Positions 29,409 through 53,097 of a DNA stretch of 64,000 nucleotides are shown here, one piece after another. Location of the stretch: positions 251,878 to 315,877 of the forward strand of contig CAVRKE010000002.1 in assembly GCA_963722305.1 (NCBI GenBank), read 5' to 3'. The notes under the pieces are model-generated. The model saw only the letters and a list, made by a program, of their open reading frames with translations. It searched no databases and was not told the DNA's origin. A program made the translations under genes and the position numbers. The DNA comes from Candidatus Levyibacteriota bacterium. GTDB taxonomy: Bacteria; Patescibacteriota; Microgenomatia; Levybacterales; UBA12049. Position 1 is the stretch's first letter. Every line of letters begins with the position of its first letter.

Positions 29409-29512
29409 TGTTTCACCTCCTTCCAAATTGATTAAGCTAAAAATACTCTTTTACTTTTCAGAAGTCAAATTGATTTTTTAGCTAAACGGTGTCATGCTAA
29501 GAATGAAAGAGG

Positions 29513-31434: not shown

Positions 31435-31848
31435 AAGAAGTCAAATTAAATTTATTAAGGTTTTTTCATGGTCGTAAACCCTCTATTTTGCGACACGGAG
31501 GCTGTTTTAATCCAGTAAATTAGCCTTGTCAAGTTGATGAATCAAGGCTGAGCTATATATCCTAACCGGCTGGGATTTTGTCTAGCTATAAAATATACAG
31601 CGTTTAAGGCAAAAGAAGGTAATATTCTTCCGTTCTTTTCCTTTATCTAAAGATAAAGAAGATGAGACATCATTATTTGTAGACGTTGAATGCCCGTAGT
31701 ATAATCACTTTTGGTTTTTGGTCCTTGTAATGTTTTAATATTTATTTAGTATATCTCTGCCCCGTTTATATTAGCTGTCCTTTATTATTCCTGCTCTGTA
31801 TTTGTTTTATATTCCTGTCCAATTTTATATAACTAATTTATATAACTT

Positions 31849-32665
31849 ATGAGACATTATGGTATGGATGATGATTATGTTCCAACCCATAAGCAAATGG
31901 ATATTATTGAATTGGTCTATAAATTCCGGTTTATTAATAGAAAACAAATACAGACAATCTTTGATTATAAAGACCCCAAAAGCGTTAACCCCCTATTGAA
32001 AGATTTAGTAGAGCATAAATACCTTAATAGAATTTATTCTCACAAGCTTTTAGAAAATACTAAACCTGCCATTTATTATTTAGCTAATGAAGGAATAGGT
32101 TGGGTTCGAGCAAATTTTTACGAAGACGAACCGGAAAAGGTAAAAAGATTTTATCAGGATAAACATGCATCGGATAGGTTTATTAATCACTGTATTGCGC
32201 TTTGCGATTTATCTCTGCAATGGCAAGGAGTCTAGAAAGGGATATCCAACTGATGGTTATTCTTTTAGTACGAGTACTGAGCTTTGGTACGAGGAGGAAT
32301 TAAAAACAATCCGACCTGATGCCCATATTGAAATTCGAGAAAATCAGATAATATCAACATTCTTCCTTGATCTGATAGAGCCATATGTCCCAATGTATGC
32401 AATTCGTTACAAGATTGATCAGTATATAGATTTTCGCAGTAATTCACGTTGGTGGGATGTCTACACGGGAAGCGATTTGACGTCTTTTGTTATCCGTCTA
32501 ATCTTTCCTAATCAAACAAAACAAAGACGCATGAGCAAATACATTAAAGAACAGTTATACGGATCGTTTGATACAGAAAATCTAACATTCCTACTCTCTA
32601 CGTATAAAAAGGCTTCGGAAGAGGGTGTAGAAGCCGACATTTGGGAAACAATAAAAGATGCATAA
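31849..32665 (+). pseudogene. Replication-relaxation family protein gene (Replic_Relax-like wHTH), interrupted by a +1 frameshift near 32220-32235
   Basis: Track ORFs 31849..32235 and 32165..32665 are the two halves. Motifs …HCIALCDLSL… then …RPDAHIEI…FFLDL…. The shift maps to the run ...CAAGGAGTCTAG.... Confidence 0.6.
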
Positions 32666-32685
32666 AGTTGAAATATAGCAAAATA

Positions 32686-32718
32686 AAATCTCCCGCCGGA
32701 GCTGACGGGAGATTTTAA
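32686..32718. terminator. Bidirectional intrinsic terminator between convergent genes
   Basis: AAAATCTCCCG-CCGGAGCTGA-CGGGAGATTTT, with an A-tract on one side and a T-tract on the other. Confidence 0.6.
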
Positions 32719-32723
32719 TCAAA

Positions 32724-33032
32724 CTATTCGTAGAGCCAGGGCTCGTGAACCCTTTTTATCTCGGATAGTCTCGTAGGTTTAAAAGACATATCCTGCTCTA
32801 GTCCGTAAGCTTCATGAATCCGCTCAAGCTTTTCCAAGGAGAAATATCCAACCTCAGGATTATCTCCTACTACATAACCAAAGAATGAATCTTCTCCGTC
32901 AAATTCAAATGGATACCAAACCCATTTGTTAAGCGGCATATAGAATTTACAGACAGCTATCGGGTCTTCCACCTTTTCCTGGGAATGCAACGGAGGAAGA
33001 GCTTTTCTTAATTCATCTGTAATCAGTTTCAT
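32724..33032 (-). CDS. DUF2958-family protein (plasmid/ICE-associated); start at MKLITDEL with RBS AGGAGGTGA
   Basis: Motif …LPPLHSQE…DPIAVCKFYMP…WVWYPFEFDG…. Confidence 0.6.
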   Translation of the reverse strand: MKLITDELRKALPPLHSQEKVEDPIAVCKFYMPLNKWVWYPFEFDGEDSFFGYVVGDNPEVGYFSLEKLERIHEAYGLEQDMSFKPTRLSEIKRVHEPWLYE

Positions 33033-33211
33033 ATTTTTCACCTCCTTTCTTAATAATTTATTTTTAGGAAGCAGCCTTGCTTCCTGTACTTGAATTAAAA
33101 AAAGCGGGGTGAATTTTGCAAGGGCGACTGAAAGGAAGTTCATCTTGACCCTTGTCAAAAGAGGGGCAAGACCCCTAGAGAAGCTTTTTGCGTGCTATAA
33201 TATATTTTATT

Positions 33212-33979
33212 ATGGCAGATGGTTCAGCGATGCCTGAGGCTAGTATCCCCAACAGTGAAAGACAGACTTTGGGAGATTTCGAAACAACTCCTCCAAGCGA
33301 ACATGACCCGAATAATTTTCGCTATATTGTTCACTGTTTTGTTCCGGATAATTTGAAGGGGGTATTTACTACAGTTGGGTCGAAGAGAGCAGCGGATAAA
33401 GGTTGGCATCCTGAAACTCAAAGTGATCCGATCGAAAGCACGGAGCAATTTCTTAAAAGAGAATATATCTCTTGTTCTGTGGTAGATCAAGACCATTTAG
33501 CTACGTGGTCCAATGCGGGAATAATATTAAACGCTGAGAGGAAGAATCTTATGTTGACGTTTGGGGGAGACGCGGGAATAGTTTCGTCAACTGACGCGGA
33601 CAGGGAGCAATTCCCTTATCCAGTTATGCCCTTTTCGGAGCTTTTAGATGAAACTAGTCCTTTCCTTCACAACGAAGTTGTTGTGCGTGGATCCGAAGGA
33701 TATCCACCGCTTAGTATAGCTGGCGTTTTTATTAAGACAGATCCACAAGGACAATATATCCATGACATGGACGCTGAAGTTATTCCAAAGGCTCGCAATT
33801 TAGCTGCGAGACTCAATGTACCCGTAGTTGAGATGAGAGGAGTGCCTACCCTACATACTATTATACCCATATCTCAACCACCTAATGCTAATGTAGAACA
33901 ACCTATTGAATCTACTGGCGGAATGTTTAATAAGGTAAAAGTAGGCGTTTCTAGTATTAGAAGAAGATTCAAAGTTTAA
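33212..33979 (+). CDS. Hypothetical protein (GC-richer), flanked by 29-bp direct repeats
   Basis: About 255 aa from MADGSAMPEA. No domain recognised. The repeat CCTTGTCAAAAGAGGGGCAAGACCCCTAG occurs at 33149-33177 and 34121-34149. Confidence 0.45.
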   Translation: MADGSAMPEASIPNSERQTLGDFETTPPSEHDPNNFRYIVHCFVPDNLKGVFTTVGSKRAADKGWHPETQSDPIESTEQFLKREYISCSVVDQDHLATWSNAGIILNAERKNLMLTFGGDAGIVSSTDADREQFPYPVMPFSELLDETSPFLHNEVVVRGSEGYPPLSIAGVFIKTDPQGQYIHDMDAEVIPKARNLAARLNVPVVEMRGVPTLHTIIPISQPPNANVEQPIESTGGMFNKVKVGVSSIRRRFKV

Positions 33980-34216
33980 TAAGATCCACCTTTATTAGAA
34001 TAGGTGGTATTGCTTATGCAAAAGGTGTTTTTAAATTTAAAGCAAGAAGAGAAAGACTTATACCATTAAGCCAGGAATAGAATAGGATCTAACCTCGTCT
34101 ATCCCACGAATGCAGGAAATCCTTGTCAAAAGAGGGGCAAGACCCCTAGGATACTATCGATAAATAATCACTTCTTGTAATGATTGATTTTTCAAATTCT
34201 TTTACTATGGCAACCG

Positions 34217-34738
34217 CTATATAAATATATCAAGAACTTTATATTCCAAGTTATTTTCCTTGAATACGGTATCTATGCCTCTTTTTCTGGGACTATATTG
34301 ACTAACATGGTCTTTCCCTACGACAAGTAAAACTATTTTATCTGTTTTATTTTTTATTCTTTCATACCATATATTTTCTCTCTTATCGTTGTAATCATCT
34401 ATTAACTTTATATATGGTTCTTTTTCTTCATTGGTAAATCTAGAAGAGTTTACGATATTGAAGTATTCTACAATTTTTTCTAACTCTTCCAATCCATATT
34501 TAGATCTTTCATCAATTTCAGGTTCACACATAATATATTCAAGGCTATGCTTTACGGCTAGCTCTTTAACTATCATCCTATGATCCGGATTTTGAAAATT
34601 ATAAGTATTTACTTCTTCAGCGATGAGGGAGATTTTGAGGTCGCGAATTAATTTGTCTAGATATTGATAAAAAATCGGAGATTTTCTCGGGTCATCTCCA
34701 TATTGAATCATGTGATCGGTACCTAGTATATAAATCAT
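34217..34738 (-). CDS. Hypothetical protein
   Basis: 173 aa. Last gene of a three-ORF minus-strand unit with 34911..35213 and the small ORF 34774..34890. Confidence 0.45.
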   Translation of the reverse strand: MIYILGTDHMIQYGDDPRKSPIFYQYLDKLIRDLKISLIAEEVNTYNFQNPDHRMIVKELAVKHSLEYIMCEPEIDERSKYGLEELEKIVEYFNIVNSSRFTNEEKEPYIKLIDDYNDKRENIWYERIKNKTDKIVLLVVGKDHVSQYSPRKRGIDTVFKENNLEYKVLDIFI

Positions 34739-34773
34739 CGTCAGAAAATTGTATCGCTACGTTTCTAATAATT

Positions 34774-34890
34774 AAATTATCTTGGTGTCGATCTGTCAAA
34801 AGCCTTTATTCTTATTTTTTTACCATTAGATAATTTCCTCAAATAAGAGTGGACTTTAACAAATTTTTTGCCTCTTTGTGTTTCTGCCAT
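34774..34890 (-). CDS. Unannotated small basic protein (38 aa, MAETQRGKKFVKVHSYLRKLSNGKKIRIKAFDRSTPR) with a strong RBS
   Basis: Not in the ORF track (under 60 aa). RBS AAAGAGGAGGTGA is 8 nt upstream of the ATG at 34888-34890. It lies between two co-directional genes. Confidence 0.4.
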
Positions 34891-34910
34891 TTAATTTTTC
34901 ACCTCCTCTT

Positions 34911-35213
34911 TCATATATGCGCATACACTTCGCTCATTGCTGAATCATTTGGAGTATAAAACGGACGAATTCCTGTAAAGTTTTTATCTGTTAATTCCAT
35001 ACTTGAAATATTTTCCACGATAAAAAGCCTCCAGTTAGGGACATCATCGGGATGATTACTAAACCCGGAGATTTCCCATGCTCTCAAAAGCTCTTTATCT
35101 GAACCCCCTCTCCCATAACAAAAAGGCTCTATTAACCTTTCTCCTATTTCGTCCTTATAGCGAATGCTTACTATTGTTTTTGCTTGAATTGCTTGAGTTA
35201 ATGTTGAATTCAT
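34911..35213 (-). CDS. Small WYL-like domain protein (tentative)
   Basis: 100 aa. …IGERLIEPFCYG…WRLFIVENISSMELTDKNF… resembles the WYL ligand-binding beta-barrel signature (W-Y/R-L…R.F.ldRI). Assigned by pattern only. Confidence 0.35.
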   Translation of the reverse strand: MNSTLTQAIQAKTIVSIRYKDEIGERLIEPFCYGRGGSDKELLRAWEISGFSNHPDDVPNWRLFIVENISSMELTDKNFTGIRPFYTPNDSAMSEVYAHI

Positions 35214-35376
35214 AATCTATCACCTTAATTCCGGCACATAGTTAAAACTATACATCTAGTGCCACCAAAATAATATGGCACTATATCTACCCTGTCAACT
35301 ATTAACATCTATATCAAATTAGGTCAACATTATTTTTAGCTTCGGTTTGTGGCTAAGAAATCAATCGCTATAGTAT

Positions 35377-36132
35377 TTACATTCCTGAATATGGAGAAAC
35401 ATCAATTACAACACTACCAAGATCTTTATAATAATTCATCTTAACCTCTTTATTGCCCGTTATCTGTGAATCCTTTGTTTCTGTCCCATTGGAAAAAAGG
35501 ACAATCGTTTCATCAACCCAAGTTGTCCCATCACTCCAGTCAGGAGCAGCATTTTGAATAAATTGATGTGCTAAAACCAAAGCACTTTGATTTTCTGAGT
35601 TATGTTGACTTGCAATAAACATTAATTCGACATCAGATAAATTTGTTTTATTACCTATTAATTGTAAATTAGTATTGGCTGTATAGTCCGTTCCTACATA
35701 GTTTGGCTGACCCTTCACATCAACTCCTTGTTTCATTGTAAAAGAATCGCTTAATCCGACCATCATGTCATCATAGGAAACGCCTAGTGTTGGAACAGGC
35801 GTAGGACTTGAAGCGTTAGTTGGAGTCGCCTTTATTTTATTTGTTGGCGCTATGGTTGGTGTTTGCGTTGGTTGCGGAGTTGGCGTTGCGGTGACCTTAG
35901 CAAGGTTACCGGAATTGGTTTGTTGATTAGAAGGGCTATTTGAACCCGATGATGCTAAACTACTTATGATAAGGATTAAGAATAATATCGTAACTCCCCA
36001 TTTTAAGTACTTATTCCAATTGCTATATTTCCACATTAAGAATAATCCAACGGGAAAAAATAAGACAAGAAGTATTACTATCCAGATAGTCTTTGAGTGC
36101 CATTTTGAGCTTACCGTATTGTCTGATTCCAT
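35377..36132 (-). CDS. Membrane-anchored secreted hypothetical protein
   Basis: 251 aa. N-terminal TM helices, a Thr/Pro-rich linker and a C-terminal globular part. TTGACT-N17-TATATA promoter upstream. Confidence 0.5.
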   Translation of the reverse strand: MESDNTVSSKWHSKTIWIVILLVLFFPVGLFLMWKYSNWNKYLKWGVTILFLILIISSLASSGSNSPSNQQTNSGNLAKVTATPTPQPTQTPTIAPTNKIKATPTNASSPTPVPTLGVSYDDMMVGLSDSFTMKQGVDVKGQPNYVGTDYTANTNLQLIGNKTNLSDVELMFIASQHNSENQSALVLAHQFIQNAAPDWSDGTTWVDETIVLFSNGTETKDSQITGNKEVKMNYYKDLGSVVIDVSPYSGM

Positions 36133-36201
36133 AAGGATATAAATTCTGATTTGTATATATACCCAAATTAGAAGAAAGTCAAATTATTTCTAAAAATAAA
36201 T

Positions 36202-37107
36202 TTAACCAAGAACTTGCTTTAATCCTGCTTCTAAAACTCCTTCTTTGGCCATTTTATAATTAACTATACATGGAAACTTATTAAAATAATCTTGCATTAA
36301 TGATTTAGCTGACATCCACCCAAAGCCATCAGTAAATAAAAACAATGATAATGTAAATCCCTGGCTAAAAGTTCTGTTAACATAAGCGCCAGGAACTTCT
36401 AATTTAGTGCCACCTCCTGAAAAAAAATTTGCTTCTATATCAACAAATTTACCTCCTTTATAAACAATAAAATCCATATTCCTACGTAATTCCATAGGTG
36501 GTTCCTTAAAAGATAAGTCTCTTAATACTTTCTCAAATTTTTGTCTTATTTTTACTTGATAACCATTTTTATAAGCTATTTGCATAATTAGAGGTTCTAC
36601 AAACTTTTCCCATTCAACACCACCTCTATTTTTTCTAGCATTTGTGTCCGAACCTACTTCAACACCCATATAATAATCTCTTAAATTTTTTACTTCTTTT
36701 AAAACATTTGCTAACCCTGATTTTCTCCAAAAATCAATATATTCATAAATTTCAATATCTGTTTCTGGAAGCTTTGTAAAATCAAAATTTAAATATCTTC
36801 TCGTATCAGGGTCTTCAATAATAGAAAATTTATCATCTCTTATTGCTAACAATCGAGGGAAAACTCTAATAACTTCAGGATATTTTTTAATTGTTTCGAA
36901 AAATTCCTTAACGTCTGATTGCAAAACAGCTTCTAATATTCCTAATTCTATTTTATATTTTTCTACAAAATCTAATACTTTATCCCAATCCACATAAAAA
37001 CCCCACTCTCTATTTGTTATTAGAAGTGTTGATAAAAAATATTTAACAACGTCGTTAATATCGTTAATTCCTTTTATCTTTTTATAAATATCTATGTTAT
37101 TGTTCAT
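36202..37107 (-). CDS. Type II restriction endonuclease, DpnII/MboI family (GATC-type; specificity is inferred)
   Basis: 301 aa. Blocks recalled from R.DpnII: YPEVIRVFPRLLAIRD, GVEVGSDTNARKNRGG, DFIVYKGGKFVDIEANFFSGGG and FTDGFGWMSAK. It lies directly downstream of a beta-class methyltransferase gene in the same orientation. Confidence 0.65.
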   Translation of the reverse strand: MNNNIDIYKKIKGINDINDVVKYFLSTLLITNREWGFYVDWDKVLDFVEKYKIELGILEAVLQSDVKEFFETIKKYPEVIRVFPRLLAIRDDKFSIIEDPDTRRYLNFDFTKLPETDIEIYEYIDFWRKSGLANVLKEVKNLRDYYMGVEVGSDTNARKNRGGVEWEKFVEPLIMQIAYKNGYQVKIRQKFEKVLRDLSFKEPPMELRRNMDFIVYKGGKFVDIEANFFSGGGTKLEVPGAYVNRTFSQGFTLSLFLFTDGFGWMSAKSLMQDYFNKFPCIVNYKMAKEGVLEAGLKQVLG

Positions 37108-37109
37108 TA

Positions 37110-37941
37110 TTATTTAATATTCTCAAATCTTTTTATTGATAATTTTAGATAATCTTCTTCTTTGTCTATCCCTATAAATTTTCTCCCGTTCATGGCTGCA
37201 ACGATACCTGTTGTCGAACTTCCCGTGAATGGATCCAATATTACATCTCCTTTATTTGTACTTGCAAGTATTATTCTTTCAAGTAATGCAACTGGTTTTT
37301 GTGTTGGATGTTTGCCGTATTTTTTTTCGGAGGGCTTTGGCGTTGTTATGGACCAAACATCCTCTGGAAATCTATCAGAATTATTTTCAAACGCCCATAC
37401 GGAACGCATTTGTTTTCCTGGTTTTTTCATAAAGTCTTCCTGATGCCATTCCCCATTTTTCATTAATTTATAATTGAAAGTGTGCTTAGCATCTTTACTT
37501 TTTCTTGCCCAAATCAAAGTCTCATGGCTTGCGGTAAAATATCTTCCACTTAGATTTGGCGAAGCATTTGGCTTAAACCACGAAATATCATTTAGAATAT
37601 GGTAGCCATTAACTTCTAAAGCATAACCACATCTGTAAATAGAATGATAGGTTCCACTTATCCAGATTGTTCCATTTGGTTTTAATACTCTTTTGCAAGC
37701 CTCTATCCATTTCATATGGAAATATAAGTCCTCTTCCAATCCTTTACTCTTATCCCAATCTCCTTTATGAACACTTACTCTTTTCCTGCATGGACAGTAA
37801 AACCACCATTGGAAAGATTGTACGGAGGATCAGCAAAAATCATATCGAAATGCTCGGGAGGAAATTGTTTCATTAATTCTATAGAATCACCTAAATATAG
37901 AGCAAAATTTTTGTCTTTATCGAGGAAATATGGCTTCTGCA
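37110..37941 (-). pseudogene. Beta-class N6-adenine (N4/N6) DNA methyltransferase, DpnA-like. The reading frame is broken by two 1-nt homopolymer shifts.
   Basis: The N-terminal 55 codons (37941->37777; …FADPPYNLSNGGFTVHAGKE*) carry motif IV DPPY. The body (from 37739; …HPTQKP…DPFTGSSTTG…) carries motif I. Frames differ across 37737-37780. The shifts sit in an A4 run (GGAAAAGAG) and in GATTGGAAG, where an intact copy would read TGGG. Confidence 0.65.
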
Positions 37942-37989
37942 TAAACTTGAACCAATAATAACACTTTGGGAAATTTTTGGAAAGGTATT

Positions 37990-39060
37990 CTAAATAAAGA
38001 AATTGAACCCTTTATCTATTTTCAGCGTATCTGGATTTTCCCCTTCTTCTAAGTGTTTTTTAAGGCCGCTTGTATAAAGCTCTTGCCCCTCTTTCCCTAA
38101 TTTACTCCAAAGAGAATCTGAAAAAACTATGTTTTCGCAATTATTAGCAAGTAAATTTGTCAACAGAATCTTTTTTTGATCATCATTGACCGAAATCAAT
38201 TGTTTTTCTAGGAATGAGTAGTAATCATGGAATTCAGCAAAATAGCTTAACAATACATAAGTCTTCCCATTTTGGGGAAATATCGTAATAAAGAAAATGC
38301 TAGCCGGTTTTTCTAAATCTTGCAGTTGGCTCTTCATATTCCCTTCGAAATCGTAAAGAAAATTTATAGCAGAGCTTACAGAGAATAAATATTCTTCGTT
38401 AAAAGCGATAACTTTTGTTTCTATTAAATCATATTTCTTTTGCTCAAAGCACTCTTTAAATCGGTCGTAAGAAGCGATACTATCTTTTATAGATAGTTCG
38501 CTTCCTGCCACAAATAGAGCGCTATCAATATCTATGATCTGCGCCCTGCTCGTAACATAATTTGATAAAATTTTCAGGTAGGCCTCTTTCGAATATGCCC
38601 TGAAAGCAAACAGGAAATCTTGCTTCTGACTTCCAATTTGATAATCTTTCTCCTCAATTTCTTTAAAAATTAAATTGTCATGAAATTTACAAAAACCTGT
38701 AAAGGTAGTTGCCGAATTCTTGCTAATATCTTTTGCTGAGAGGGTAAATTCAACCGGATCCGTGCTTGGGGTAGGAAAAACCATTTTCACCATACCATTT
38801 TTAGATAATTTTTTTAAAATTTTGTTATTTTGTATTGAGTGTGCGTTAACTATTCCCCCTTTACATTGATCTTTAATTGGATAAAGACAGGTCATTACTT
38901 CTGCATTTTTAAACATTTGGGCCATCTTTACGCTTACAGGTTTCTTCAAACTATCTTGATGTAATTTATTGTTTAAATAACCGCAGGCTTTCCATTTCTT
39001 GCCGCTTCCGCAAATACAAAGCTTGTTCCTTTCAAACCTTAGCTTTAGTTTCTTTTTCAT
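37990..39060 (-). CDS. SEC-C-motif protein with an uncharacterised C-terminal domain
   Basis: 356 aa. N-terminal CICGSGKKWKACGY metal-binding SEC-C motif, then conserved-looking …GGIVNAHSIQNNKIL… and …FTGFCKFHD…. No family assigned. Confidence 0.5.
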   Translation of the reverse strand: MKKKLKLRFERNKLCICGSGKKWKACGYLNNKLHQDSLKKPVSVKMAQMFKNAEVMTCLYPIKDQCKGGIVNAHSIQNNKILKKLSKNGMVKMVFPTPSTDPVEFTLSAKDISKNSATTFTGFCKFHDNLIFKEIEEKDYQIGSQKQDFLFAFRAYSKEAYLKILSNYVTSRAQIIDIDSALFVAGSELSIKDSIASYDRFKECFEQKKYDLIETKVIAFNEEYLFSVSSAINFLYDFEGNMKSQLQDLEKPASIFFITIFPQNGKTYVLLSYFAEFHDYYSFLEKQLISVNDDQKKILLTNLLANNCENIVFSDSLWSKLGKEGQELYTSGLKKHLEEGENPDTLKIDKGFNFFI

Positions 39061-39104
39061 GCTGCTCGGATTATAGTACTATGGGGAATTTTTGGAAAGC
39101 AGGG

Positions 39105-39824: not shown

Positions 39825-39939
39825 AGATCTCTCTTGTTTCTAGCTTCTTTTTTTATTAAAACACCTGATGAGAATATAGCTTTTTTAATCCAAAAATGCA
39901 ACTAATCATTTTGAATAGGAAGGATATATTTAATACTCA

Positions 39940-40041
39940 TTGACTTACTTTTAATCAGTGTTATAATCGATTCATGAGGTGAATCTGCATCGCAAGGTGT
40001 AGACCACTTCTCCAAAGAAAACTAGTTCGCTAGTTTTTTTT
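39940..40041 (+). ncRNA. Candidate small transcription unit (promoter + about 65-nt RNA + terminator), antisense/adjacent to the DUF3800 3' end
   Basis: TTGACT (39940-39945), 16 nt, TATAAT (39962-39967), then ...AAAACTAG-TTCG-CTAGTTTTTTTT at 40017-40041. The only ORF inside is ATGAGGTGA. Confidence 0.25.
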
Positions 40042-40042
40042 G

Positions 40043-40921
40043 TTATAAGGGATCCATTGTAACCTCTTCTAAATCTACCCCCAAATTTCTTAATTCAGTC
40101 CTAACTTTTTGAATAACTTTAAATCTATTCTTAGGAACATCTGCTAATTCTGCGTTTAATTTTTTAGAAAATCTTAAAGTTTGAAATGAAATATATGAAA
40201 TTAAATCTGCAATTTCAATTCCAGCATCTAAAGATTTCTTATTATGTAGTCTAATGCCTAAAACTTTTTTCCCATAATCCGAATCGATATCAATGTAGGT
40301 ATTGTATATACCTACTAACCTAAGATCAGTCGTTCGATTTGACTCTGCATTTACATAACCAATTGCATCTTCTTCCTTAAGCACGCTTAAATGATAATTT
40401 AATGCTCTTTTTATGGTGAGATCTAATGGAATAAAAATTTTACCGCTTAGTGATTTTTTTAATTTTCTACTAAACTCTTTTTTCTTTAGCTTGTAATCGC
40501 CTGCACTTGAATATGCTGGTGGTTCATCAATATGTAATCTGGATCTAACTTTGGGTAGATCAACATAAAAAGATATTGATTTAAATGTGATATAGCTTAA
40601 GAATTCCATTAATTCTTCTACGGCGTTGTTAAAATTTCGTGAAATAGACAATTCAGTTTTAATAATATGACTTGCCTTAGGATTTTTGCTCTCAAAAAAA
40701 TCAAATGCATGCAAACATTTATAAGGATTCAGTAAATATTTATCTCTCCATTTTTGCATTAGGAGATTTGCTAAAGTTCTCTGTTTTGGATCGATTATTA
40801 CTGCTGTGATAAGAAAGTATCTAAATTTTGACTGTCCAACGTAGGATAATCCTGATTCATCGATATATAAATCAAGTCTAGGATCTTGAATAATTGCATT
40901 TTTCACAATTATATTATACAC
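40043..40921 (-). CDS. DUF3800-family protein
   Basis: 292 aa. N-terminal …LDLYIDESG…, the signature DESG motif. Confidence 0.6.
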   Translation of the reverse strand: MYNIIVKNAIIQDPRLDLYIDESGLSYVGQSKFRYFLITAVIIDPKQRTLANLLMQKWRDKYLLNPYKCLHAFDFFESKNPKASHIIKTELSISRNFNNAVEELMEFLSYITFKSISFYVDLPKVRSRLHIDEPPAYSSAGDYKLKKKEFSRKLKKSLSGKIFIPLDLTIKRALNYHLSVLKEEDAIGYVNAESNRTTDLRLVGIYNTYIDIDSDYGKKVLGIRLHNKKSLDAGIEIADLISYISFQTLRFSKKLNAELADVPKNRFKVIQKVRTELRNLGVDLEEVTMDPL

Positions 40922-41027
40922 CTAAGATTGCACAATGTATATCGTGCCTCGCGTCGCACAAGATTTGCTTTACGTCAAAACGTAATTGAAACTTTTATCG
41001 GTATAATATTTGAGGCTAGAATATGGT

Positions 41028-41052
41028 GTTTGTCAAGTGTCACTTGACAAAC
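41028..41052. promoter_or_regulatory. 25-bp perfect palindrome carrying TTGACA -35 boxes in both orientations, between the divergent DUF3800 and ATPase genes
   Basis: GTTTGTCAAGTG-T-CACTTGACAAAC. The plus-strand promoter continues 17 nt to TAATAT, then 8 nt to the ATG at 41081. Confidence 0.55.
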
Positions 41053-41080
41053 ACCCCCCGTATATGTAATATATGGATAG

Positions 41081-42262
41081 ATGTTTATCTCAAGAAATAT
41101 TTTACCAAAACTTGAACAGGAACTCGAAAAAAAGGAAGCAACCGTAATTACGGGTATGAGAAGAGTTGGTAAGACCACACTTCTCGTTCACCTTTTTGAT
41201 TCAATAGCTTCCAAAAATAAAACGATCTTTGATCTAGAAAATCCCTTGCACAGACATGTTTTTGAGGAAGAAAACTATGATAATATTTGGAATAATTTAG
41301 CTCAATATGGCATAACCAATAAAGAAAAAGCATATCTTTTTATTGATGAAATACAGAACTTACCAACTATCAGCACCGCCATTAAGTATCTGTACGACCA
41401 TTTTGATATTAAATTCGTGCTCACTGGGTCTAGTAGCTATTATCTTAAGAACCTTTTCCCTGAATCACTCAGCGGAAGAAAAGTTGTGCTCGAATTATAT
41501 CCGCTAACTTTTTCTGAATTCCTAAGTTTTAAAGGGGTAGAAAAAAAATATTTTCCAACTTTTGAGGAAAAGATAAAAAGCAAAAATAAAATAAACTTCG
41601 AGCAACACAAAAAGTATTATGATGAATATATTGAGTTTGGTGGATTTCCCGCAGTAGTGTTAGAGGAAAACAGAGAAAGAAAAAAAATTCTTTTGGAGGA
41701 GATTTTTACTTCGTATTTTGAAAAAGATGCCAAAAATCTAGCCGATTTTAAAGACATGGCAAAACTTAGAGACTTAATTTTACTTTTAGTCCCACGCATA
41801 GGACAACGCATAGAAATAGCAAAGCTTGCCTCAAATCTTTCTCTATCGCGAGAAACAGTATATAACTATTTATATTTCCTCGAACAAACATATTTTATTT
41901 CGTTATTGTCGAAGTTTTCAAAAAGTATTGACCGTCAATCATCCGGAGGAAAAAAATTATTCCTATGTGACAGCGGCATTGCTAATATACTTGGAAAAAT
42001 ATCATTAGGACAGCTTTTTGAACAGAGTGTTTTCCAAAATTTAAGACCCTCTTTTACCTTACATTACTATAACAAGGAAGGAAAGAGCGAAATTGATTTT
42101 ATCGTTGACGAAAAAACTGCTTTGGAAGCTAAGCTTACTTTTTCACTCGCTGATCAGGAATACTTAAAAAGAAAAACATATCCTTTGAATTTAAAAGAGA
42201 CTTATATTGTATCTTTGGACTTCAACGATAGCGAAAACTCCCTTCCAGCAACTGAATTATAA
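41081..42262 (+). CDS. AAA_14/DUF4143-type ATPase (archaeal-ATPase-like)
   Basis: 393 aa. Walker A …ITGMRRVGKTTLL…, Walker B …LFIDEIQ…. DUF4143 C-terminal region. Leaderless-type promoter downstream of the palindrome. Confidence 0.8.
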   Translation: MFISRNILPKLEQELEKKEATVITGMRRVGKTTLLVHLFDSIASKNKTIFDLENPLHRHVFEEENYDNIWNNLAQYGITNKEKAYLFIDEIQNLPTISTAIKYLYDHFDIKFVLTGSSSYYLKNLFPESLSGRKVVLELYPLTFSEFLSFKGVEKKYFPTFEEKIKSKNKINFEQHKKYYDEYIEFGGFPAVVLEENRERKKILLEEIFTSYFEKDAKNLADFKDMAKLRDLILLLVPRIGQRIEIAKLASNLSLSRETVYNYLYFLEQTYFISLLSKFSKSIDRQSSGGKKLFLCDSGIANILGKISLGQLFEQSVFQNLRPSFTLHYYNKEGKSEIDFIVDEKTALEAKLTFSLADQEYLKRKTYPLNLKETYIVSLDFNDSENSLPATEL

Positions 42263-42313
42263 ATATAACCCAGATAATCTATGTCGTAAAACTTTTGATT
42301 TAGGACGTGAATT

Positions 42314-43501
42314 TTAAGCTATGAATTCTAAATAATTATGAGGCGTAATAACAGAAAACTTTTCCGACTCTGGATAACTAACCATCCAATCTTTTGGGGG
42401 AAGAACCTCGTTTTTTGTTGACCATTTAAATTCATAAGGAAACAGTTTGCCTTCTCTTTCTTCAATCAAATCTATTTCCCTTTGTTCGTAAGTTCGCCAA
42501 AAGTATGAATATCCATGAATATGTTTATATGATCTTTTTTTCATTCTTTCTATCATCAGAAAGTTTTCCCAAAGACTTCCTATATCATTTCTTGAATCAA
42601 GTCCGTTAAATTGGGAGATTACTGCATTCCGTATACCGTTGTCAAAAAAGAAGTATTTAGACTTGCTTGTTACTTCAGAACGCAAATTTCTGCTGAATGT
42701 GCTCAGGCGGAAAATAATAAAAGCTTTTTCCAAAAGATCCAGATAGCGCCCTACTGTTTTTACATCTATGGCAAGATTTGTCGACAACTCATTTAGGGAA
42801 ACCTCATTCCCTACCTGAAAGGCTAAAAGTTTTAAAAGGTCAAGCAAAGTTTTTGAACCCTTTAATTGTTGAAGAGCAAGTATATCCTTGAAGATGTATG
42901 AATTAACCAGTTCCTCAAGAATTCGTATTTTTTCTTCTTTTGTTTTAGCAGTAATAACCTGAGGATAACTTCCTAGAACAAGATACTCTTCCAATTTTTC
43001 TTTTAAATCATGACTATTATGCTCTGGCAGAAGTTCAAGTTGGGCAATCGGATATAAAGTCAGGGTAGTTTTTCTGCCCATCAGGGGTTCGCCGATTTGG
43101 TTTGAAAGATCGAAAGACGACGAACCCGTTGCGATAACTTTGAGATTCGGCACCTGGTCGACAAGTATTTTGATACCCATTCCGATATTCGGAATGTATT
43201 GCGCTTCGTCAAGCACAATCAGGTCATAACCCTGTGCGTATTCAAGTATTCGCGTGAAATCTTGAGACCCCAACAAATCCTGGATACGGATATTATCGCC
43301 CGAATCCAGCTTATATTTTAAGGTGGTGTTTTTTATAAAATTCTCCAACAGCGTTGTTTTTCCGACTCTTCGGGGACCATAGATGATTAACGCTTGGTTC
43401 GCTTTAAGAAATGGGTTCAAATCATCGTAAAAATGGGCAATCATAGGAAAAATATACCATAATTCCACAAATTTGTCAAATTTTATGGAGTTCAATTCCA
43501 T
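42314..43501 (-). CDS. AAA_14/DUF4143-type ATPase, second copy, convergent with the first. The true start is probably MIAHFYDD, about 43444.
   Basis: 395 aa. …IIYGPRRVGKTTLLENF…, …LVLDEAQYIPN…. A divergent paralog of 41081..42262. Confidence 0.8.
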   Translation of the reverse strand: MELNSIKFDKFVELWYIFPMIAHFYDDLNPFLKANQALIIYGPRRVGKTTLLENFIKNTTLKYKLDSGDNIRIQDLLGSQDFTRILEYAQGYDLIVLDEAQYIPNIGMGIKILVDQVPNLKVIATGSSSFDLSNQIGEPLMGRKTTLTLYPIAQLELLPEHNSHDLKEKLEEYLVLGSYPQVITAKTKEEKIRILEELVNSYIFKDILALQQLKGSKTLLDLLKLLAFQVGNEVSLNELSTNLAIDVKTVGRYLDLLEKAFIIFRLSTFSRNLRSEVTSKSKYFFFDNGIRNAVISQFNGLDSRNDIGSLWENFLMIERMKKRSYKHIHGYSYFWRTYEQREIDLIEEREGKLFPYEFKWSTKNEVLPPKDWMVSYPESEKFSVITPHNYLEFIA

Positions 43502-43678
43502 AGATTAAGCCTATTTTACGTATAATTTATGGATTGAGCCTGACCATGAATAGGCATATCCCGGTTTTAGCGTCGTACAAAAATTTGGTTTACGTCAAGC
43601 TTACAAACAATTGAGCTTAACAACTCTAGTTTTTATACGCCTTGACAAAATTTCATAGTTATGCTATTCTGTACGTAT

Positions 43679-44212
43679 ATGTACAGGATAAATGAACTGT
43701 TGAAGCTAGATCGAAAAATATATCATAGCAACGATTTGGCTATTCTTTGGGAAATTACAAATAAAAATACCCTTTATACAACAATAAAACGTTATGTAAA
43801 AAAGGGGGTTCTAATTCCTGTTTTTAAGGGACTTTATACCACGATTCCCACTACTCAACTTGATCCGTTAGTCCTTGGCACTGCGATTATCCACAGGTAT
43901 ACTTACCTAAGCACCGAATCGGTACTTGTAACACACGGGGTTATTTCGCAAATAACTTACAACTATACCTTCATAAGTAGCCTATCGAAAAAGGTGACTA
44001 TTGAAGATCGAACATTTTTGTTTCGAAGATTAAACCCAAAATTTCTTAATAATCCATTCGGAATCGAAAAAAGAGGAGACGTTTACGTTGCGACTCTTGA
44101 ACGTGCGGTATCGGACATGCTTTACTTCGATCCAAAGTATACATTTGATGTTAAAAAACAAATTGACTGGAAAAAAGTCAAACAAATTCAAAAGGAAGTA
44201 GGATACGTATGA
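43679..44212 (+). CDS. AbiEi-like antitoxin (wHTH + C-terminal domain) of a type IV TA/abortive-infection pair. Start taken at MYRINEL.
   Basis: TTGACA-N17-TATTCT promoter at 43642-43670. 4-nt overlap with the downstream AbiEii gene. Typical size and position. Confidence 0.55.
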   Translation: MYRINELLKLDRKIYHSNDLAILWEITNKNTLYTTIKRYVKKGVLIPVFKGLYTTIPTTQLDPLVLGTAIIHRYTYLSTESVLVTHGVISQITYNYTFISSLSKKVTIEDRTFLFRRLNPKFLNNPFGIEKRGDVYVATLERAVSDMLYFDPKYTFDVKKQIDWKKVKQIQKEVGYV

Positions 44213-44946
44213 TTAACTTAAGACCTCAAGATACAATCCATAAATCCTATTTAAACAGGATCTTAATTGAAGTAATAGATAATCCGATTCTCTCCCAAAA
44301 TTTAGCTTTTAAAGGAGGTACCTGTGCATCCATGCTTGGGTTTCTAGACCGTTTCTCCGTCGACTTGGATTTTGATCTTATTACCGATTTTGACAAAAAA
44401 ATAATCAGAAAAGAGTTTCGACAAGTTTTTAAGAAATTAGATTTGAACATTACAATGGAATATACAAATGTAATATTTTTCCTGGTTAAATATCCAAGTG
44501 CTATAGCAAACCAAAGAAATTCTATTAAAATCAGCTTAAACGACGTAAAGATTAAATCCAACGAATATAAAGTTCAATTTTTCCCTGAAATAGATAGGCT
44601 AATGAATAGCCAGACGATAGAAGCAATGTTTGCCAATAAATTAGTCGCTGCAACTGATAGATATCGAAGATTTCATACTATTGCTGGTCGTGATATTTAT
44701 GATATTCATCATTTTTATACGAGAGGTTATAAATATAAAAGTGAAATTATTAAAGAACGAACCGGTCTTACTAGTTCTGTATACTTAAATAAATTAATCG
44801 AATTCATTAAAGAACACGTTAATCAAAAGATAGTTGACGAAGACCTTAATACGCTACTTCCAAACGATTATTTTCAGCAAATACGTAAAATTCTTATTCC
44901 CGAAACATTATTTTTTCTTTCTGAAAACAAAACTAATAAAATATAA
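44209..44946 (+). CDS. AbiEii/AbiGii-family nucleotidyltransferase toxin (DUF1814)
   Basis: 245 aa. Signature …LAFKGGTCASMLGFLDRFSVDLDFD…. Confidence 0.8.
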   Translation: MINLRPQDTIHKSYLNRILIEVIDNPILSQNLAFKGGTCASMLGFLDRFSVDLDFDLITDFDKKIIRKEFRQVFKKLDLNITMEYTNVIFFLVKYPSAIANQRNSIKISLNDVKIKSNEYKVQFFPEIDRLMNSQTIEAMFANKLVAATDRYRRFHTIAGRDIYDIHHFYTRGYKYKSEIIKERTGLTSSVYLNKLIEFIKEHVNQKIVDEDLNTLLPNDYFQQIRKILIPETLFFLSENKTNKI

Positions 44947-45036
44947 TGTGAAGATAAATTTAATATCTAAATATAATTTGTTTTTCTTCGAGTCGTAAAA
45001 ACTTTGGTTTACGACAAAATTCTTGACAAAAGTAAT

Positions 45037-45065
45037 AGTTCCTAGTACACTAGGAACTAGGAACT
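45037..45065 (+). promoter_or_regulatory. Perfect palindromic operator overlapping the -10 of the wHTH-PRTase gene promoter
   Basis: AGTTCCTAG-TACA-CTAGGAACT at 45037-45058, with an extra AGGAACT half-site at 45059-45065. The promoter is TTGACA (45023-45028), 17 nt, then TACACT. Confidence 0.55.
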
Positions 45066-45066
45066 T

Positions 45067-46041
45067 ATGACACGAACCTCAGATAAAATAATCGAATATA
45101 TTTCAAAAGCTAATCACGCTAGTGGCAAAGAGATCACAAACTATCTTGGGAATATTACCGACAGAGCAGTAAGAAAACAATTAAGATCTCTTTTACAAAA
45201 AGGTATTCTAACAAAGGTCGGAAAACCTCCCAAAGTTTATTACCAAATTAACAATAAGGTGACAGAAAAAAATATCCCTATCGACCAAAAAATCAAAGAT
45301 TTTATTGATAAGCATTACTTATATATCTCGCCAGCGGGAGAATCGCTTGAAGGTTGGAAGGGATTTGTAGCGTGGTGCAATAAAACAAACCAGGATCCTC
45401 TCAAAACAGTAAGGGATTATCAGGTCACATTAAATAAATTTAATAAGTACAAAAAAAATGGGTTAATTGACGGAATGCCAAAAATGAGAAATACCTTTAA
45501 AAAAGTATTTTTAGACAAATTATTTTATCTTGATTTCTATAGTATCGAAAGATTCGGTAAAACAAAACTTGGCCAAATGCTTTTATATGCAAAACAAAGT
45601 CAGAATAGAATTCTAATATCAAGATTGATAGATAACATTAAACCAGACATTTTAAAAATTATTTCGAAATATAAAATAGACGGTGTCATTTACATTCCCC
45701 CAACAGTGAAACGTGAGGTTCAGTTAATGAAAGAGTTAGAAAATAATTTAAGTTTACCGTTAAGAACGTTGGGGGTAACCAAAATAAAAACAGAGATAAT
45801 TGTTCCCCAAAAAACTCTTTCAAAGCTTGAAGACAGGATTGAGAACGCAAGGAAAACAATTATCGTAAATGAACATAACAAGTATAAAAACGTTCTTCTA
45901 ATTGATGACGCTGTGGGATCGGGAGCAACAATGAATGAAACGGCAAAGCAAATAAAGAACAAGGGGCTGGTGTCCGGACAAATACTTGGATTGGCTGTTA
46001 CAGGTAGCTTTAAAGGGTTCGACATTATTAGTGAGGTTTAA
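45067..46041 (+). CDS. Winged-HTH + ComF-like phosphoribosyltransferase (PRTase) domain protein
   Basis: 324 aa. N-terminal wHTH (…GKEITNYLGNITDRAVRKQLRSLLQKGIL…). C-terminal type I PRTase with PRPP motif …VLLIDDAVGSGATMNE…. Confidence 0.6.
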   Translation: MTRTSDKIIEYISKANHASGKEITNYLGNITDRAVRKQLRSLLQKGILTKVGKPPKVYYQINNKVTEKNIPIDQKIKDFIDKHYLYISPAGESLEGWKGFVAWCNKTNQDPLKTVRDYQVTLNKFNKYKKNGLIDGMPKMRNTFKKVFLDKLFYLDFYSIERFGKTKLGQMLLYAKQSQNRILISRLIDNIKPDILKIISKYKIDGVIYIPPTVKREVQLMKELENNLSLPLRTLGVTKIKTEIIVPQKTLSKLEDRIENARKTIIVNEHNKYKNVLLIDDAVGSGATMNETAKQIKNKGLVSGQILGLAVTGSFKGFDIISEV

Positions 46042-46175
46042 ATTTTTGAGACCTCTCCTTTCTAAATCATCTTTCATTTAAAAAGAACGTCTGTCGAATA
46101 GCTCCCAACTCTCCAATAACAATTAAATCCTTCATGTCGCAAAATCCTTGGGTTTGCGATGTAAATTTGAGGCTA

Positions 46176-46574
46176 TTATAGTCGATTGGTAGTCGCATGT
46201 CTTTTTAGCCACTTGGAAATCTCTTCGATCGATAGATGTTGATTCTCGACTTTTAGGGGGAATGCAACAAACTCTTTCTGACTAGCTTCAAGTTCATACC
46301 CGTTCATAAACAAAAACCTTGCAGTTGAAACCATAGCAGTTCTCTTATTGCCGTCTACAAAAGCATGATTAAACATTAAGGAATGAAACAAAGCAGCGGC
46401 TTTGTCAAAAATAGTCTGATACAAATCTTCTCCCCCGAATGAAGATTGCGGTCTCGCAACTGCAGACTGGATAAGACCTATATCTCTTATCCCATGGCTG
46501 CCTCCGTATTTTTCCACCATCTTCTCATGAATTACCAGTATGATATCCAGAGTAAGATAAGAAGTGTTTCTCAC
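46176..46574 (-). CDS. doc: Doc (Fic-family) toxin
   Basis: 132 aa. Fic motif …HAFVDGNKRTA…. Confidence 0.85.
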   Translation of the reverse strand: MRNTSYLTLDIILVIHEKMVEKYGGSHGIRDIGLIQSAVARPQSSFGGEDLYQTIFDKAAALFHSLMFNHAFVDGNKRTAMVSTARFLFMNGYELEASQKEFVAFPLKVENQHLSIEEISKWLKRHATTNRL

Positions 46575-46822
46575 TTTTTTGCAAGTTCGCTCAGTGCGGA
46601 TTTGTATTTGCCGTTAAACTTTTCCAACCAATCCATGAACTCAGGAGTTATACCGCTGGCTTTTCCAACGGAAGATCCCAAGCGACCTACGACGAGAGCA
46701 TCAGCTTCCAGATCCTGCCTGACAACTACTTTCTGTCCCGCTTTCAGCTTCTTTTCTTTGACAAAATTTGCCGGAAGAGTGACTGCCAACGAATTACCGA
46801 CTTTTATAATTGTTTGTTCCAT
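46571..46822 (-). CDS. AbrB/MazE/SpoVT-type antitoxin (Phd-like partner of Doc)
   Basis: 83 aa. …MEQTIIKVGNSLAVTLP… swapped-hairpin beta-barrel motif. 4-nt overlap with doc. Tandem ATGTTATAACA x2 operator-like repeat upstream (46840-46863). Confidence 0.8.
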   Translation of the reverse strand: MEQTIIKVGNSLAVTLPANFVKEKKLKAGQKVVVRQDLEADALVVGRLGSSVGKASGITPEFMDWLEKFNGKYKSALSELAKK

Positions 46823-47019
46823 GTTATAACAATGTTATAACAAAATACACTATTTGTCAAGACGCCCTTAAGGAACTACTTAATCTGACGGGATAATTCA
46901 AGCACAATAGGTTTGTATCATTCCCCTAGAGAAAGGTATACTGAAAACGGAGAGCCAGCGAAAATAGGTTTCGGGATAGTATTTTTACTATGCCCACTGT
47001 TAGAGCAACTGGTCTTCCC

Positions 47020-48175: not shown

Positions 48176-48280
48176 CTTCTCCATGAACACGCTGTTCAGG
48201 ATTTCGCTGAAGCTCAACATCAGGGGGGAGCTGCTTAGCCTCAAAATTGACTTCCTCTTAAATTATGAGATGATTTATTT

Positions 48281-49732: not shown

Positions 49733-49734
49733 AC

Positions 49735-53076: not shown

Positions 53077-53097
53077 TGACCTGTATAAAGTTAATTA

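Follow-up and report, generated by a model that had tools for sequence, protein, structure and literature searches.

A probable horizontally acquired island of independent defence modules with a recurrent border palindrome in a Candidatus Levyibacteriota genome

We analysed a 64,000-nucleotide (nt) stretch of the genome of a Candidatus Levyibacteriota bacterium of the candidate phyla radiation (CPR, or Patescibacteria), which corresponds to positions 251,878 to 315,877 of contig CAVRKE010000002.1 (GenBank assembly GCA_963722305.1) and is referred to below as the window. Within it lies a compositionally foreign block (31,471-51,431) in which restriction-modification (R-M), abortive-infection and toxin-antitoxin (TA) genes stand beside plasmid- and insertion sequence (IS)-type genes. 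In our assessment this block is probably a horizontally acquired defence island of about 20 kb, composed of independent modules and set inside a 27.4-kb strain-specific region. The DnaK protein of the window is 93% identical to Levyibacteriota proteins, and both flanks are core chromosome, with PNPase, IF-2, NusA, ClpB, DnaJ/K, GrpE, HrcA, MetRS and an S-adenosylmethionine (SAM)-I/IV riboswitch plus MetK on the left, and Nramp, DUF2079, TatD and glycosyltransferase genes on the right. The strain-specific accessory region between them (24,054-51,480, no strand assigned) is bounded by two convergent core genes, unk239 (23,334-24,053, downstream of MetK) and unk76 (51,481-51,711, adjoining Nramp).

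The extent of this region was set by comparison with relatives at their orthologous Nramp loci, with gene order backed by DNA alignments. L-numbers denote loci and contigs fetched from relatives, metagenome assemblies and viral contigs; L010 and L011 are identical to L008 and therefore add no evidence, and L100 is the same locus as L008. In five relatives (L152, L153, L154, L155 and L157) unk239 and unk76 lie just 0.1-0.4 kb apart, in the order TatD - Nramp - unk76 - small variable open reading frame (ORF) - unk239 - MetK - MetRS - HrcA - GrpE - DnaK, and none of the window's genes at 24,054-51,480 was found at this empty site. The site is variable: the small ORF between unk239 and unk76 is not the same from one relative to the next, and in L151, the closest relative, a further different gene follows before the contig runs out. 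No tRNA gene was detected in the window. An earlier note, made from the letters of the window, had described an accessory island of 15 kb followed by a two-IS110 rearrangement zone; the empty sites instead delimit 27.4 kb, and the IS110 zone lies inside both the accessory region and the atypical block.

The composition of the block sets it apart from the chromosome around it. Measured in 1-kb windows, the flanks have a GC content of 0.40-0.48, which falls to 0.28-0.38 at 34-46 kb. With 300-nt windows, a first dip (0.28-0.38) appears at 31.5-32.7 kb, the value is about 0.42 at 32.7-33.9 kb, GC is low throughout from 33.9 to about 45.9 kb, and the Doc/AbrB genes (46.2-46.8 kb) are again at 0.40-0.44. 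The GC drop that the earlier note had placed at 31.4-46.9 kb is thus real and its left limit, 31.44 kb, was well chosen, but there is no single step and the right limit falls at about 51.4 kb. We distinguish an AT-rich core of about 33.9-46.1 kb from the strongly atypical block of 31.47-51.43 kb. Tetranucleotide distance, calculated in 3-kb windows, is 0.30-0.42 in all of 31-51 kb, which is 5-10 standard deviations (SD) above core chromosomal windows (0.185 +/- 0.022, maximum 0.228), so that the k-mer deviation the earlier note had suggested computing is pronounced. The 24-31 kb part of the accessory region, at only 0.20-0.24, is near-native.

The tetranucleotide GATC points the same way. In the core chromosome (1-24,050 plus 51,480-64,000) it occurs 32 times against 106 expected, an observed-to-expected ratio (O/E) of 0.30 that amounts to strong avoidance, whereas the block (31,470-51,430) holds 61 against 70 expected (O/E 0.87); other 4-bp palindromes have O/E values near 1. 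Avoidance in the core that is absent from the block suggests that the lineage has long been under GATC restriction and that the block arrived recently. The empty site in five relatives, the atypical k-mers and the GATC contrast bear out the proposal of a horizontally acquired accessory island.

The left part of the block, 31.47-40.98 kb, opens with a replication-relaxation (Replic_Relax) gene (31,849-32,665, plus strand), which matches the Pfam model over its N-terminal part only (E = 4e-10) and whose reading frame shifts near 32,230, splitting it over two frames. A DUF2958 gene follows (32,724-33,158, minus strand; Pfam E = 3e-9). Iterons were considered and rejected as weak: of the iteron-like repeats that had been reported beside Replic_Relax, two tandem 13-mers exist, and the remainder are loose CTGYCC...TTTATAT repeats at 31,760-31,850. 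Four ORFs without assigned function occupy 33.2-36.1 kb, and apart from one weak WYL similarity they match nothing in the libraries searched. The first, of 263 amino acids (aa; 33,188-33,979, plus strand), had no match in Pfam, PADLOC, NCBIfam or PHROGs and is flanked by perfect 29-nt direct repeats, CCTTGTCAAAAGAGGGGCAAGACCCCTAG, at 33,150-33,178 and 34,121-34,149; one copy of this repeat also matches L167:13620-13648, beside the DUF2958 gene there, and the repeat looks like the 3' ends of the two IS110 copies described below. The other three (173, 100 and 251 aa; 34,217-36,132, minus strand) include the ORF with WYL similarity (100 aa, E = 0.002) and one with a hydrophobic N-terminal segment (251 aa).

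Beyond these ORFs lies a type II R-M pair. The DpnII-family restriction endonuclease (REase; 36,202-37,107, minus strand) is full length, covering positions 3-277 of the 278 in the Pfam DpnII profile (E = 3.7e-62; PADLOC REase_II, E = 9.5e-54), and shares 98% aa identity with its orthologue in L167. Its partner, an N6_N4 (beta-class) DNA methyltransferase (37,110-37,942, minus strand), is apparently inactivated by a 1-nt deletion: the Pfam match covers the C-terminal 209 aa (E = 4.1e-56), the DPPY motif sits in another frame, and comparison with the intact 277-aa L167 orthologue reveals one missing base, a T at about 37,786 (GGTAAAAG to GG-AAAAG). Both genes of this DpnII-like pair had been recognised in the earlier note, which overlooked the frameshift. 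At the DNA level the pair is 96.6% identical to that of L167. GATC specificity would follow from family membership, and fits the O/E of 0.30 in the core chromosome. An intact REase beside a broken methylase also raises the question of R-M decay.

L167 carries a related element of about 11 kb that comprises DUF6804, an FtsK gamma/alpha protein, three unknown genes, NERD, a 281-aa gene, the methylase, DpnII, small ORFs and DUF2958, the last sharing 72% aa identity with the window's DUF2958 protein. The product of its FtsK-like gene (L167:4070-5092) has 340 aa and combines the gamma and alpha domains of FtsK but lacks the motor domain. FtsK activates XerD through its gamma domain, whose presence in the element hints at Xer-type recombination. 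This gene is missing from the window. No relaxase, type IV secretion system (T4SS) or integrase was found in the window and its Replic_Relax gene is frameshifted, so a functional gene set of a plasmid or integrative and conjugative element (ICE) is lacking. To judge from its genes, the 31.47-40.98 kb segment is a decayed member of the L167-type element family, its FtsK-type gene apparently lost, and the plasmid/ICE remnant inferred in the earlier note corresponds to this left part.

The remaining genes of the left part encode a SEC-C-motif protein (37,990-39,060), a NERD (PD-(D/E)xK-type) protein (39,105-39,824; Pfam NERD E = 1.8e-14) and a DUF3800 protein (40,043-40,921; Pfam E = 7.4e-6, with an N-terminal DE motif, YIDESG), all on the minus strand. 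By eye, the NERD protein has two N-terminal hydrophobic helices. DUF3800 has been described as an RNase H-like domain and linked to retron type VII and Cas12 variants (PMC7736814, PMC10910872), and a preprint describes the multidomain NERD protein ZwsA as an anti-RNA-phage endonuclease (10.64898/2026.04.06.716636). No reverse transcriptase domain of a type VII retron was found in the island ORFs and no corresponding Rfam match even at E <= 1; a search for retron, DUF3800-associated and IS110 RNAs at the same threshold likewise gave nothing meaningful at 31-52 kb.

The NERD gene and its surroundings recur in relatives in other company. The module at 39,087-39,883 has 93% DNA identity to L006, where the neighbours differ: there the 92%-identical NERD gene has TIR and DUF4352 genes on one side and a Type ISP R-M enzyme on the other. 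L167-L172 encode a NERD protein with 48% aa identity, after which come an unrelated 281-aa gene and the R-M pair that is also present in the window. The slot after NERD thus holds three different genes in three genomes (the window, L006 and L167), the SEC-C gene being its occupant here, and the break after NERD falls in a shared promoter-like sequence, CTTTCYAAAAATT...TATAAT. This promoter-like sequence (CTTTCYAAAAATT-N-TATAAT; window 37,955-37,984 and 39,070-39,099, L006:2838-2880) precedes the methylase, the SEC-C gene and the L006 Type ISP gene, with homology breaks falling within it. The start codons lie 9-20 nt past the -10 element, which suggests that the three transcripts may be near-leaderless. 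A Logan contig from another sample (L001, ERR11594402) spans window positions 37,955-40,980 and is an independent assembly of the same strain; it breaks exactly in the promoter-like repeat and just past palindrome S2 (described below), as would be expected if the assembly graph branches at module junctions.

The SEC-C protein belongs to a large, unannotated family without a Pfam model: in the Pfam scan the SEC-C motif was matched and nothing else. A first search found 24 homologues by shared words, and a profile search found 5369 cluster representatives (E <= 0.001). Conserved motifs are C..C..AHSIQNNKIL and FTGFCxxHD, the conserved residues including C58, C66, H74, C124, H127 and D128, and SEC-C itself is an optional N-terminal tag in this family. 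The AlphaFold (AF2) model is confident, with a mean predicted local distance difference test score (pLDDT) of 86.5 and a predicted template modelling score (pTM) of 0.84, and it had no structural neighbour in the PDB. Family members were found in two Patescibacteria contigs and 47 predicted viral or prophage contigs, several of the latter near the contig end, beside terminase, umuDC or P2-type tail genes. None of these loci, 2 from metagenomes and 47 viral, has a homologue of another island gene next to the family member, and in 46 loci there was no NERD, DUF3800 or AAA_14 neighbour and no common partner. The largest neighbour cluster, in 11 of the 46 loci, was considered as a conserved partner and dismissed as a phage-lineage gene, namely an integrase-like or late-regulator gene upstream of the terminase.

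A second group of genes, at 40.95-46.9 kb, consists of five compact modules. Two convergent AAA_14/DUF4143 ATPases, 'a' (41,081-42,262, plus strand) and 'b' (42,314-43,501, minus strand), are full-length matches to the PADLOC candidate system PDC-S01 (E = 4.5e-67 and 8e-141, respectively) and are mutually 30% identical. These are followed on the plus strand by AbiEi (43,661-44,212) and AbiEii (44,209-44,946), which overlap by 4 nt and were both recognised by PADLOC (E = 7.6e-29 and 6.7e-25); AbiEii was in addition matched by Pfam (E = 7.7e-20), and AbiEi by PADLOC alone. Next is a stand-alone gene (45,067-46,041, plus strand) that encodes a winged helix-turn-helix (wHTH) and a phosphoribosyltransferase (PRTase) domain of ComF/ShosT/PsyrT type. 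Its matches are partial, to the C-terminal half of PADLOC PsyrT (E = 2.5e-17), to ShosT (E = 1.3e-4) and to NCBIfam comF (E = 1e-6), with Pfam Pribosyltran below its cut-off. The last module (46,176-46,822, minus strand) pairs a Doc toxin (46,176-46,574; Pfam Fic E = 2e-19) with an antitoxin (46,571-46,822; Pfam MazE_antitoxin E = 7.3e-7), again with a 4-nt overlap. The Doc translation contains HAFVDGNKR, in agreement with the Fic motif HxFx(D/N)(A/G)NKR, and the antitoxin is of the AbrB/MazE/SpoVT type rather than of the Phd/YefM fold. Doc with an AbrB-type antitoxin is a known alternative pairing.

The block therefore contains, between 36.2 and 46.8 kb, a type II R-M pair, AbiE, Doc/AbrB and two PDC-S01 genes, the dense stack of known defence and toxin genes that had been described from the sequence; all gene and domain calls of the earlier note, including the Replic_Relax frameshift, were reproduced by Pfam or PADLOC. 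Own -35/-10-like promoters were seen by eye in several intergenic regions.

Downstream of the antitoxin, the block is interrupted by a secondary insertion (46,865-51,174, no strand assigned) in which a PQQ beta-propeller gene (48,281-49,732, plus strand) is enclosed by two IS110-family transposase genes, A (47,168-48,115, plus strand) and B (49,769-50,716, minus strand), all three identified with Pfam. A 227-nt direct repeat with 99% identity (46,638-46,864 and 51,175-51,401) brackets the insertion and represents a second copy of the 5' part of the antitoxin gene and its promoter; the repeat has left a truncated 63-aa antitoxin ORF at 51,168-51,359. Without the insertion, Doc/AbrB would form a cassette of about 0.74 kb.

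The modules are bordered by a short repeated sequence. An imperfect palindrome of 23-25 nt, GTCGYAMA-N7-9-TTTRCGAC, recurs in intergenic DNA seven times in the 64 kb, always in the foreign block. S1 (GTCGTAAACCCTCTATTTTGCGAC; 31,471-31,494, no strand assigned), located with both a regular expression and a position weight matrix (PWM), forms the left end of the block. The others lie on the plus strand: S2 at 40,953-40,976, S3 with one degenerate arm at 42,283-42,306, S4 at 43,572-43,596, S5 with perfect 8-bp arms at 44,992-45,015, S6 at 46,136-46,160, and S7 at 51,409-51,431, the right end of the block and about 50 nt from the unk76 stop codon. The regular expression has six matches in the window against 0.3 expected, all inside the block, and the PWM scores the sites at 24-37, the rest of the window never exceeding 7. 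The outermost palindromes coincide with the limits of the foreign block, and the inner ones separate AAA_14a, AAA_14b, AbiE, PRTase and Doc/AbrB. The PRTase module has palindromes 75 nt upstream and 95 nt downstream, with AbiEii and Doc as its neighbours, and the 0.74-kb Doc/AbrB cassette would run from S6 to S7, the left junction of the IS110-PQQ-IS110 insertion being 7 nt away from the point at which S7 would come next. Spacers are asymmetric, and all five inner sites point the same way whatever the orientation of the genes; S1 and S7 share a TCTAT-type spacer unlike that of the inner sites.

The same palindromes occur at module borders in relatives, where the PWM found sites outside its training set in L008 (7346 and 8712), L006 (259) and L167 (3672). 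L008 carries a 94%-identical AAA_14a gene in a different island, among Fic, DUF4325 and others, together with a wHTH-PRTase orthologue of 66% aa identity (L008:6368-7342) that also has a palindrome on either side; module order and neighbours differ from those of the window. Across L008:6298-11201, sites flank every single gene (PRTase, DUF4325/HATPase, Fic and AAA_14a). The 90% homology between the window and L008 begins with the first base of S2 (40,953) and ends with S3 (at 42,305), with unrelated DNA on either side. The L167 element is delimited in a similar manner: one end is a full site, 90% identical to S2 including the inner flank, and the other (L167:14848-14917) matches the inner flank, inner arm and spacer of S1 and stops matching right after the spacer, the pattern expected of a hybrid att site. 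As the L167 element ends at the counterpart of S2, the segment at 40.98-51.4 kb would be additional material stacked at the same site. We infer that the palindrome may be an att-like recombination site.

We propose that the island was assembled in three layers. The first (31.47-40.98 kb) would be a decayed plasmid-like integrative element, marked by the frameshifted Replic_Relax gene and DUF2958, with the DpnII R-M pair, a variable slot occupied here by the SEC-C protein, a membrane NERD nuclease and DUF3800 as its cargo. The second (40.95-46.9 kb) would comprise five tandem mini-modules, namely two PDC-S01 ATPase-nucleases, AbiEi/AbiEii, the wHTH-PRTase and Doc/AbrB, and the third would be the IS110-PQQ-IS110 insertion, which would have split the end of the last module. 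Elements and mini-cassettes could have been inserted successively at the palindrome by tandem accretion, exchange at this site being catalysed by a recombinase encoded elsewhere. Each module would act alone, through restriction of unmethylated GATC DNA, through growth arrest of the abortive-infection or TA type, or through nuclease or PRTase effectors. We tentatively put forward the possibility, which we hold to be less than even, that these Levybacteria possess a new integrase-less cassette system in which defence modules of 1-2 genes and small plasmid-like elements enter in tandem at a palindromic att-like site of about 24 nt and are traded there between strains through a trans-acting, possibly Xer-like, recombinase.

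The consequences would be of some interest. A foreign block dense in immunity and toxin modules takes up about 20 kb, or roughly 3%, of a 679-kb contig, from which it would follow that these bacteria invest in defence; according to one paper (PMC12366544), very few defence systems have so far been identified in the Patescibacteria, whose genomes are very small. Four proteins are stand-alone candidates: the SEC-C-tagged protein, the membrane NERD protein, the DUF3800 protein and the wHTH-PRTase. If the palindrome is a true recombination site, it would explain how defence genes are shuffled without carried integrases, and would provide a sequence handle for finding further cassettes. Defence islands as such are known; what appears worth following is the cassette architecture, bracketed by sites but free of an integrase, together with the SEC-C-tagged family that has no annotation.

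Several observations weigh against the reading of the block as a defence island of site-bordered modules. The defence role of the modules is predicted: PDC-S01 is only a candidate system of PADLOC, assigned here by model match, and the R-M pair may be non-functional with its broken methylase, unless the frameshift is an assembly error. A scan of 185,579 species-representative genomes yielded 20 hits to the motif against about 17 expected by chance, with several sites in L100 alone, and viral contigs gave nine single hits, which is chance level; the two viral loci inspected, L164 and L165, look like ordinary phage structural regions, the L165 match lying inside an ORF. The motif is known only from a single narrow lineage, in four contig groups that are independent of each other (the window, L008/L100, L006 and L167-L172). 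Neither the scanned ORFs of the window nor the L167 element encode an integrase or site-specific recombinase, transposases of the IS3 and IS110 types being the only such enzymes, and the spacers are not constant between sites, a variation that does not favour classical exchange by a tyrosine recombinase. Finally, the left layer has no internal palindromes over 9.5 kb, its module borders lying in shared promoter-like sequence.

Other explanations of the gene content were weighed against independent modules. The near-native composition of 24-31.4 kb, together with the GC heterogeneity of CPR genomes and the dip at the IS at 10-13 kb, might recommend viewing the AT-rich stretch as native, fast-evolving chromosome, but the empty site in five relatives refutes this, and the k-mer distance and the GATC avoidance limited to the core speak against it as well, as do modules that are 90-97% identical in DNA to genomes whose DnaK is just 88-92% identical; we regard the idea as practically negligible. 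It is also highly improbable that a single new multi-gene defence system is formed by NERD, SEC-C and DUF3800, perhaps joined by the AAA_14 ATPases, as in the co-occurring cassette that the earlier note envisaged. The trio is co-directional and close together, with a NERD-SEC-C gap of just 44 nt, and an identical trio exists on the Logan contig, but that contig is the same strain (99.9% nt identity). A promoter-like sequence precedes each of the three genes, DUF3800 and NERD are 218 nt apart with a terminator-like hairpin in the gap, NERD is followed by the Type ISP enzyme in L006 and the 281-aa protein in L167, and the SEC-C relatives lack such neighbours in 46 other loci. Of the two outcomes that the earlier note had thought damaging to its island, scattered occurrence and housekeeping functions, the first is seen and the second is not: the genes occur independently and recur in other variable islands and prophages. 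Comparison of homologous loci shows the predicted modules to be independent units, not subunits of one system. Somewhat more credit, though still little, is due to a single integrated plasmid or ICE remnant with cargo, in which the inner palindromes would be the element's internal repeats. Replic_Relax and DUF2958 are present, the related bounded element with its FtsK gamma/alpha protein occurs in relatives, another insertion in L157 holds an intact Replic_Relax, and the spacer of S1 and S7 is distinct from that of the inner sites. We consider this unlikely given that the L167 element ends at the counterpart of S2, leaving 40.98-51.4 kb as extra, that the AAA_14a and PRTase modules stand in another order with other neighbours in L008, and that the window has no mobility genes of such an element and a broken Rep gene.

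The palindromes themselves might instead be regulatory or insulating, as operators of a shared repressor or bidirectional terminators, or a lineage-specific repeat resembling repetitive extragenic palindromic (REP) sequences, and would then lie at borders because borders are intergenic. Several sites are indeed 5-10 nt upstream of a -35-like hexamer, and no recombinase was found nearby. The arms show little covariation, with pairing in 83% of cells (81.5% in shuffles) and a single pair changed on both sides, as expected where a dimeric protein binds double-stranded DNA. With covariation this marginal, a hairpin in single-stranded DNA or RNA was set aside, and we prefer a double-stranded protein-binding site to a folded hairpin. 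IS110-family elements target repeated palindromes, and one junction of the IS110 insertion is 7 nt from S7. However, four sites are enclosed by the ends of convergent genes, a position without any promoter, and so cannot be promoter operators; the sites lack a trailing T-run, and neither the approximately 44 kb of flanking core DNA nor the core parts of L008 and L167 contain a copy. Homology blocks between genomes, moreover, end at the sites to the nucleotide, and the L167 end is a hybrid half-site. A regulatory or repeat origin is accordingly something we view as rather doubtful, and we retain the att-like site, stated conditionally, as our working interpretation.

Comparison with known systems places the locus near several of them. 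Like classical defence islands it holds at least four recognised modules within 12 kb (type II R-M, AbiE, Doc-type TA and PDC-S01 twice), lies beside plasmid- or IS-type genes, is absent in close relatives and has an atypical composition; it differs in its host, a Levybacteria genome with a 679-kb contig, and in that half of its genes match no validated system. Chromosomal integrons can carry defence cassettes, and with integron arrays the locus shares promoter-bearing units of 1-2 genes, behind each of which stands a short, imperfectly palindromic sequence that is always oriented the same way, as well as the occurrence of the same cassette in different orders in different genomes. In contrast to integrons, no IntI or attI was found (among scanned ORFs of 120 aa or more), the genes lie in either orientation, and the 23-25-nt palindrome does not fit the RYYYAAC...GTTRRRY boxes of attC and shows little sign of a folded single strand.

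Xer-dependent modules include the pdif modules of Acinetobacter plasmids and the arrays of integrative mobile elements exploiting Xer (IMEX) at dif, and tandem accretion at one att site is known for ICEs and cis-mobilizable elements (CIMEs). The resemblance to these lies in the lack of an own recombinase, in short sites whose two inverted arms enclose a spacer, in tandem stacking and, for the Xer systems, in the FtsK gamma protein of the L167 element. Unlike Xer/dif sites, the palindrome is built approximately as 8-8-8 rather than 11-6-11, and its copies are in direct rather than alternating orientation. It is unlike known dif sequences (among which Levybacteria's own dif does not figure), there is no GC-skew switch at the window locus, and the elements occupy different loci in each genome. 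The two ATPases correspond in full length to PDC-S01 (COG1373, AAA_14 plus a DUF4143 PD-(D/E)xK domain). The wHTH-PRTase resembles Shosta/PsyrTA in its C-terminal PRTase domain, which contains a phosphoribosyl pyrophosphate (PRPP) loop, VLLIDDAVGSGATM, and gives the partial PsyrT and ShosT matches mentioned above, but has no DprA-like or other partner gene adjoining, carries an N-terminal wHTH instead of a helicase, and is a one-gene module both here and in L008.

PDC-S01 genes may themselves be mobile. The palindrome was absent from 72 more distant AAA_14a loci (60-79% aa identity) and is therefore lineage-specific; these 72 loci share a conserved promoter with a palindromic operator, as found for ATPase 'a' of the window. 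Direct repeats flank the gene in the window and, scored where they exceeded the 99th percentile of a mismatched-pair null, in 10 of 37 non-redundant loci, compared with 1 of 29 in the SEC-C family used as control. In L022, L074, L063, L037 and L028 the downstream copy starts 0-16 nt past the stop codon and the upstream one finishes immediately ahead of the promoter; repeat length is 25-71 nt and identity 72-100%. The downstream copy in L022, which begins at the stop codon, is a perfect 66-nt match to the 3' end of the TPR-like gene upstream. Further direct-repeat loci of PDC-S01 relatives are L026 (with L028), L014 and L060. The repeats look like the result of a 1.3-kb promoter-plus-gene unit having been inserted with target duplication, and the PDC-S01 gene plus its conserved promoter may constitute a self-contained mobile cassette whose insertion duplicates 25-71 nt of target sequence.

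Some further features of the locus were recorded. At the gathering threshold, Rfam detected the SAM-I/IV riboswitch (RF01725, 47.6 bits) at 22,083-22,188, immediately 5' of the MetK gene, and nothing else. In L157 a different insertion lies between MetK and MetRS (L157:13686-17341), with an IS1595 fragment and a bAvd gene, which encodes an accessory protein of diversity-generating retroelements (DGRs); its intact Replic_Relax protein has 257 aa and is 57% identical to the N-terminal part of the window gene. Two more IS elements with rve-type integrase cores are present in the window: one at 11,333-13,004, which accounts for the GC dip at 10-13 kb, and one at 25,719-26,856, an IS3-like element with orfA and orfB in the 24-31 kb part of the accessory region. 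That part also contains a 98-nt internal repeat (28,735-28,832 and 28,984-29,081, 78% identity) inside a 234-aa ORF (28,722-29,426), which would thus encode a secreted or membrane protein with two repeats.

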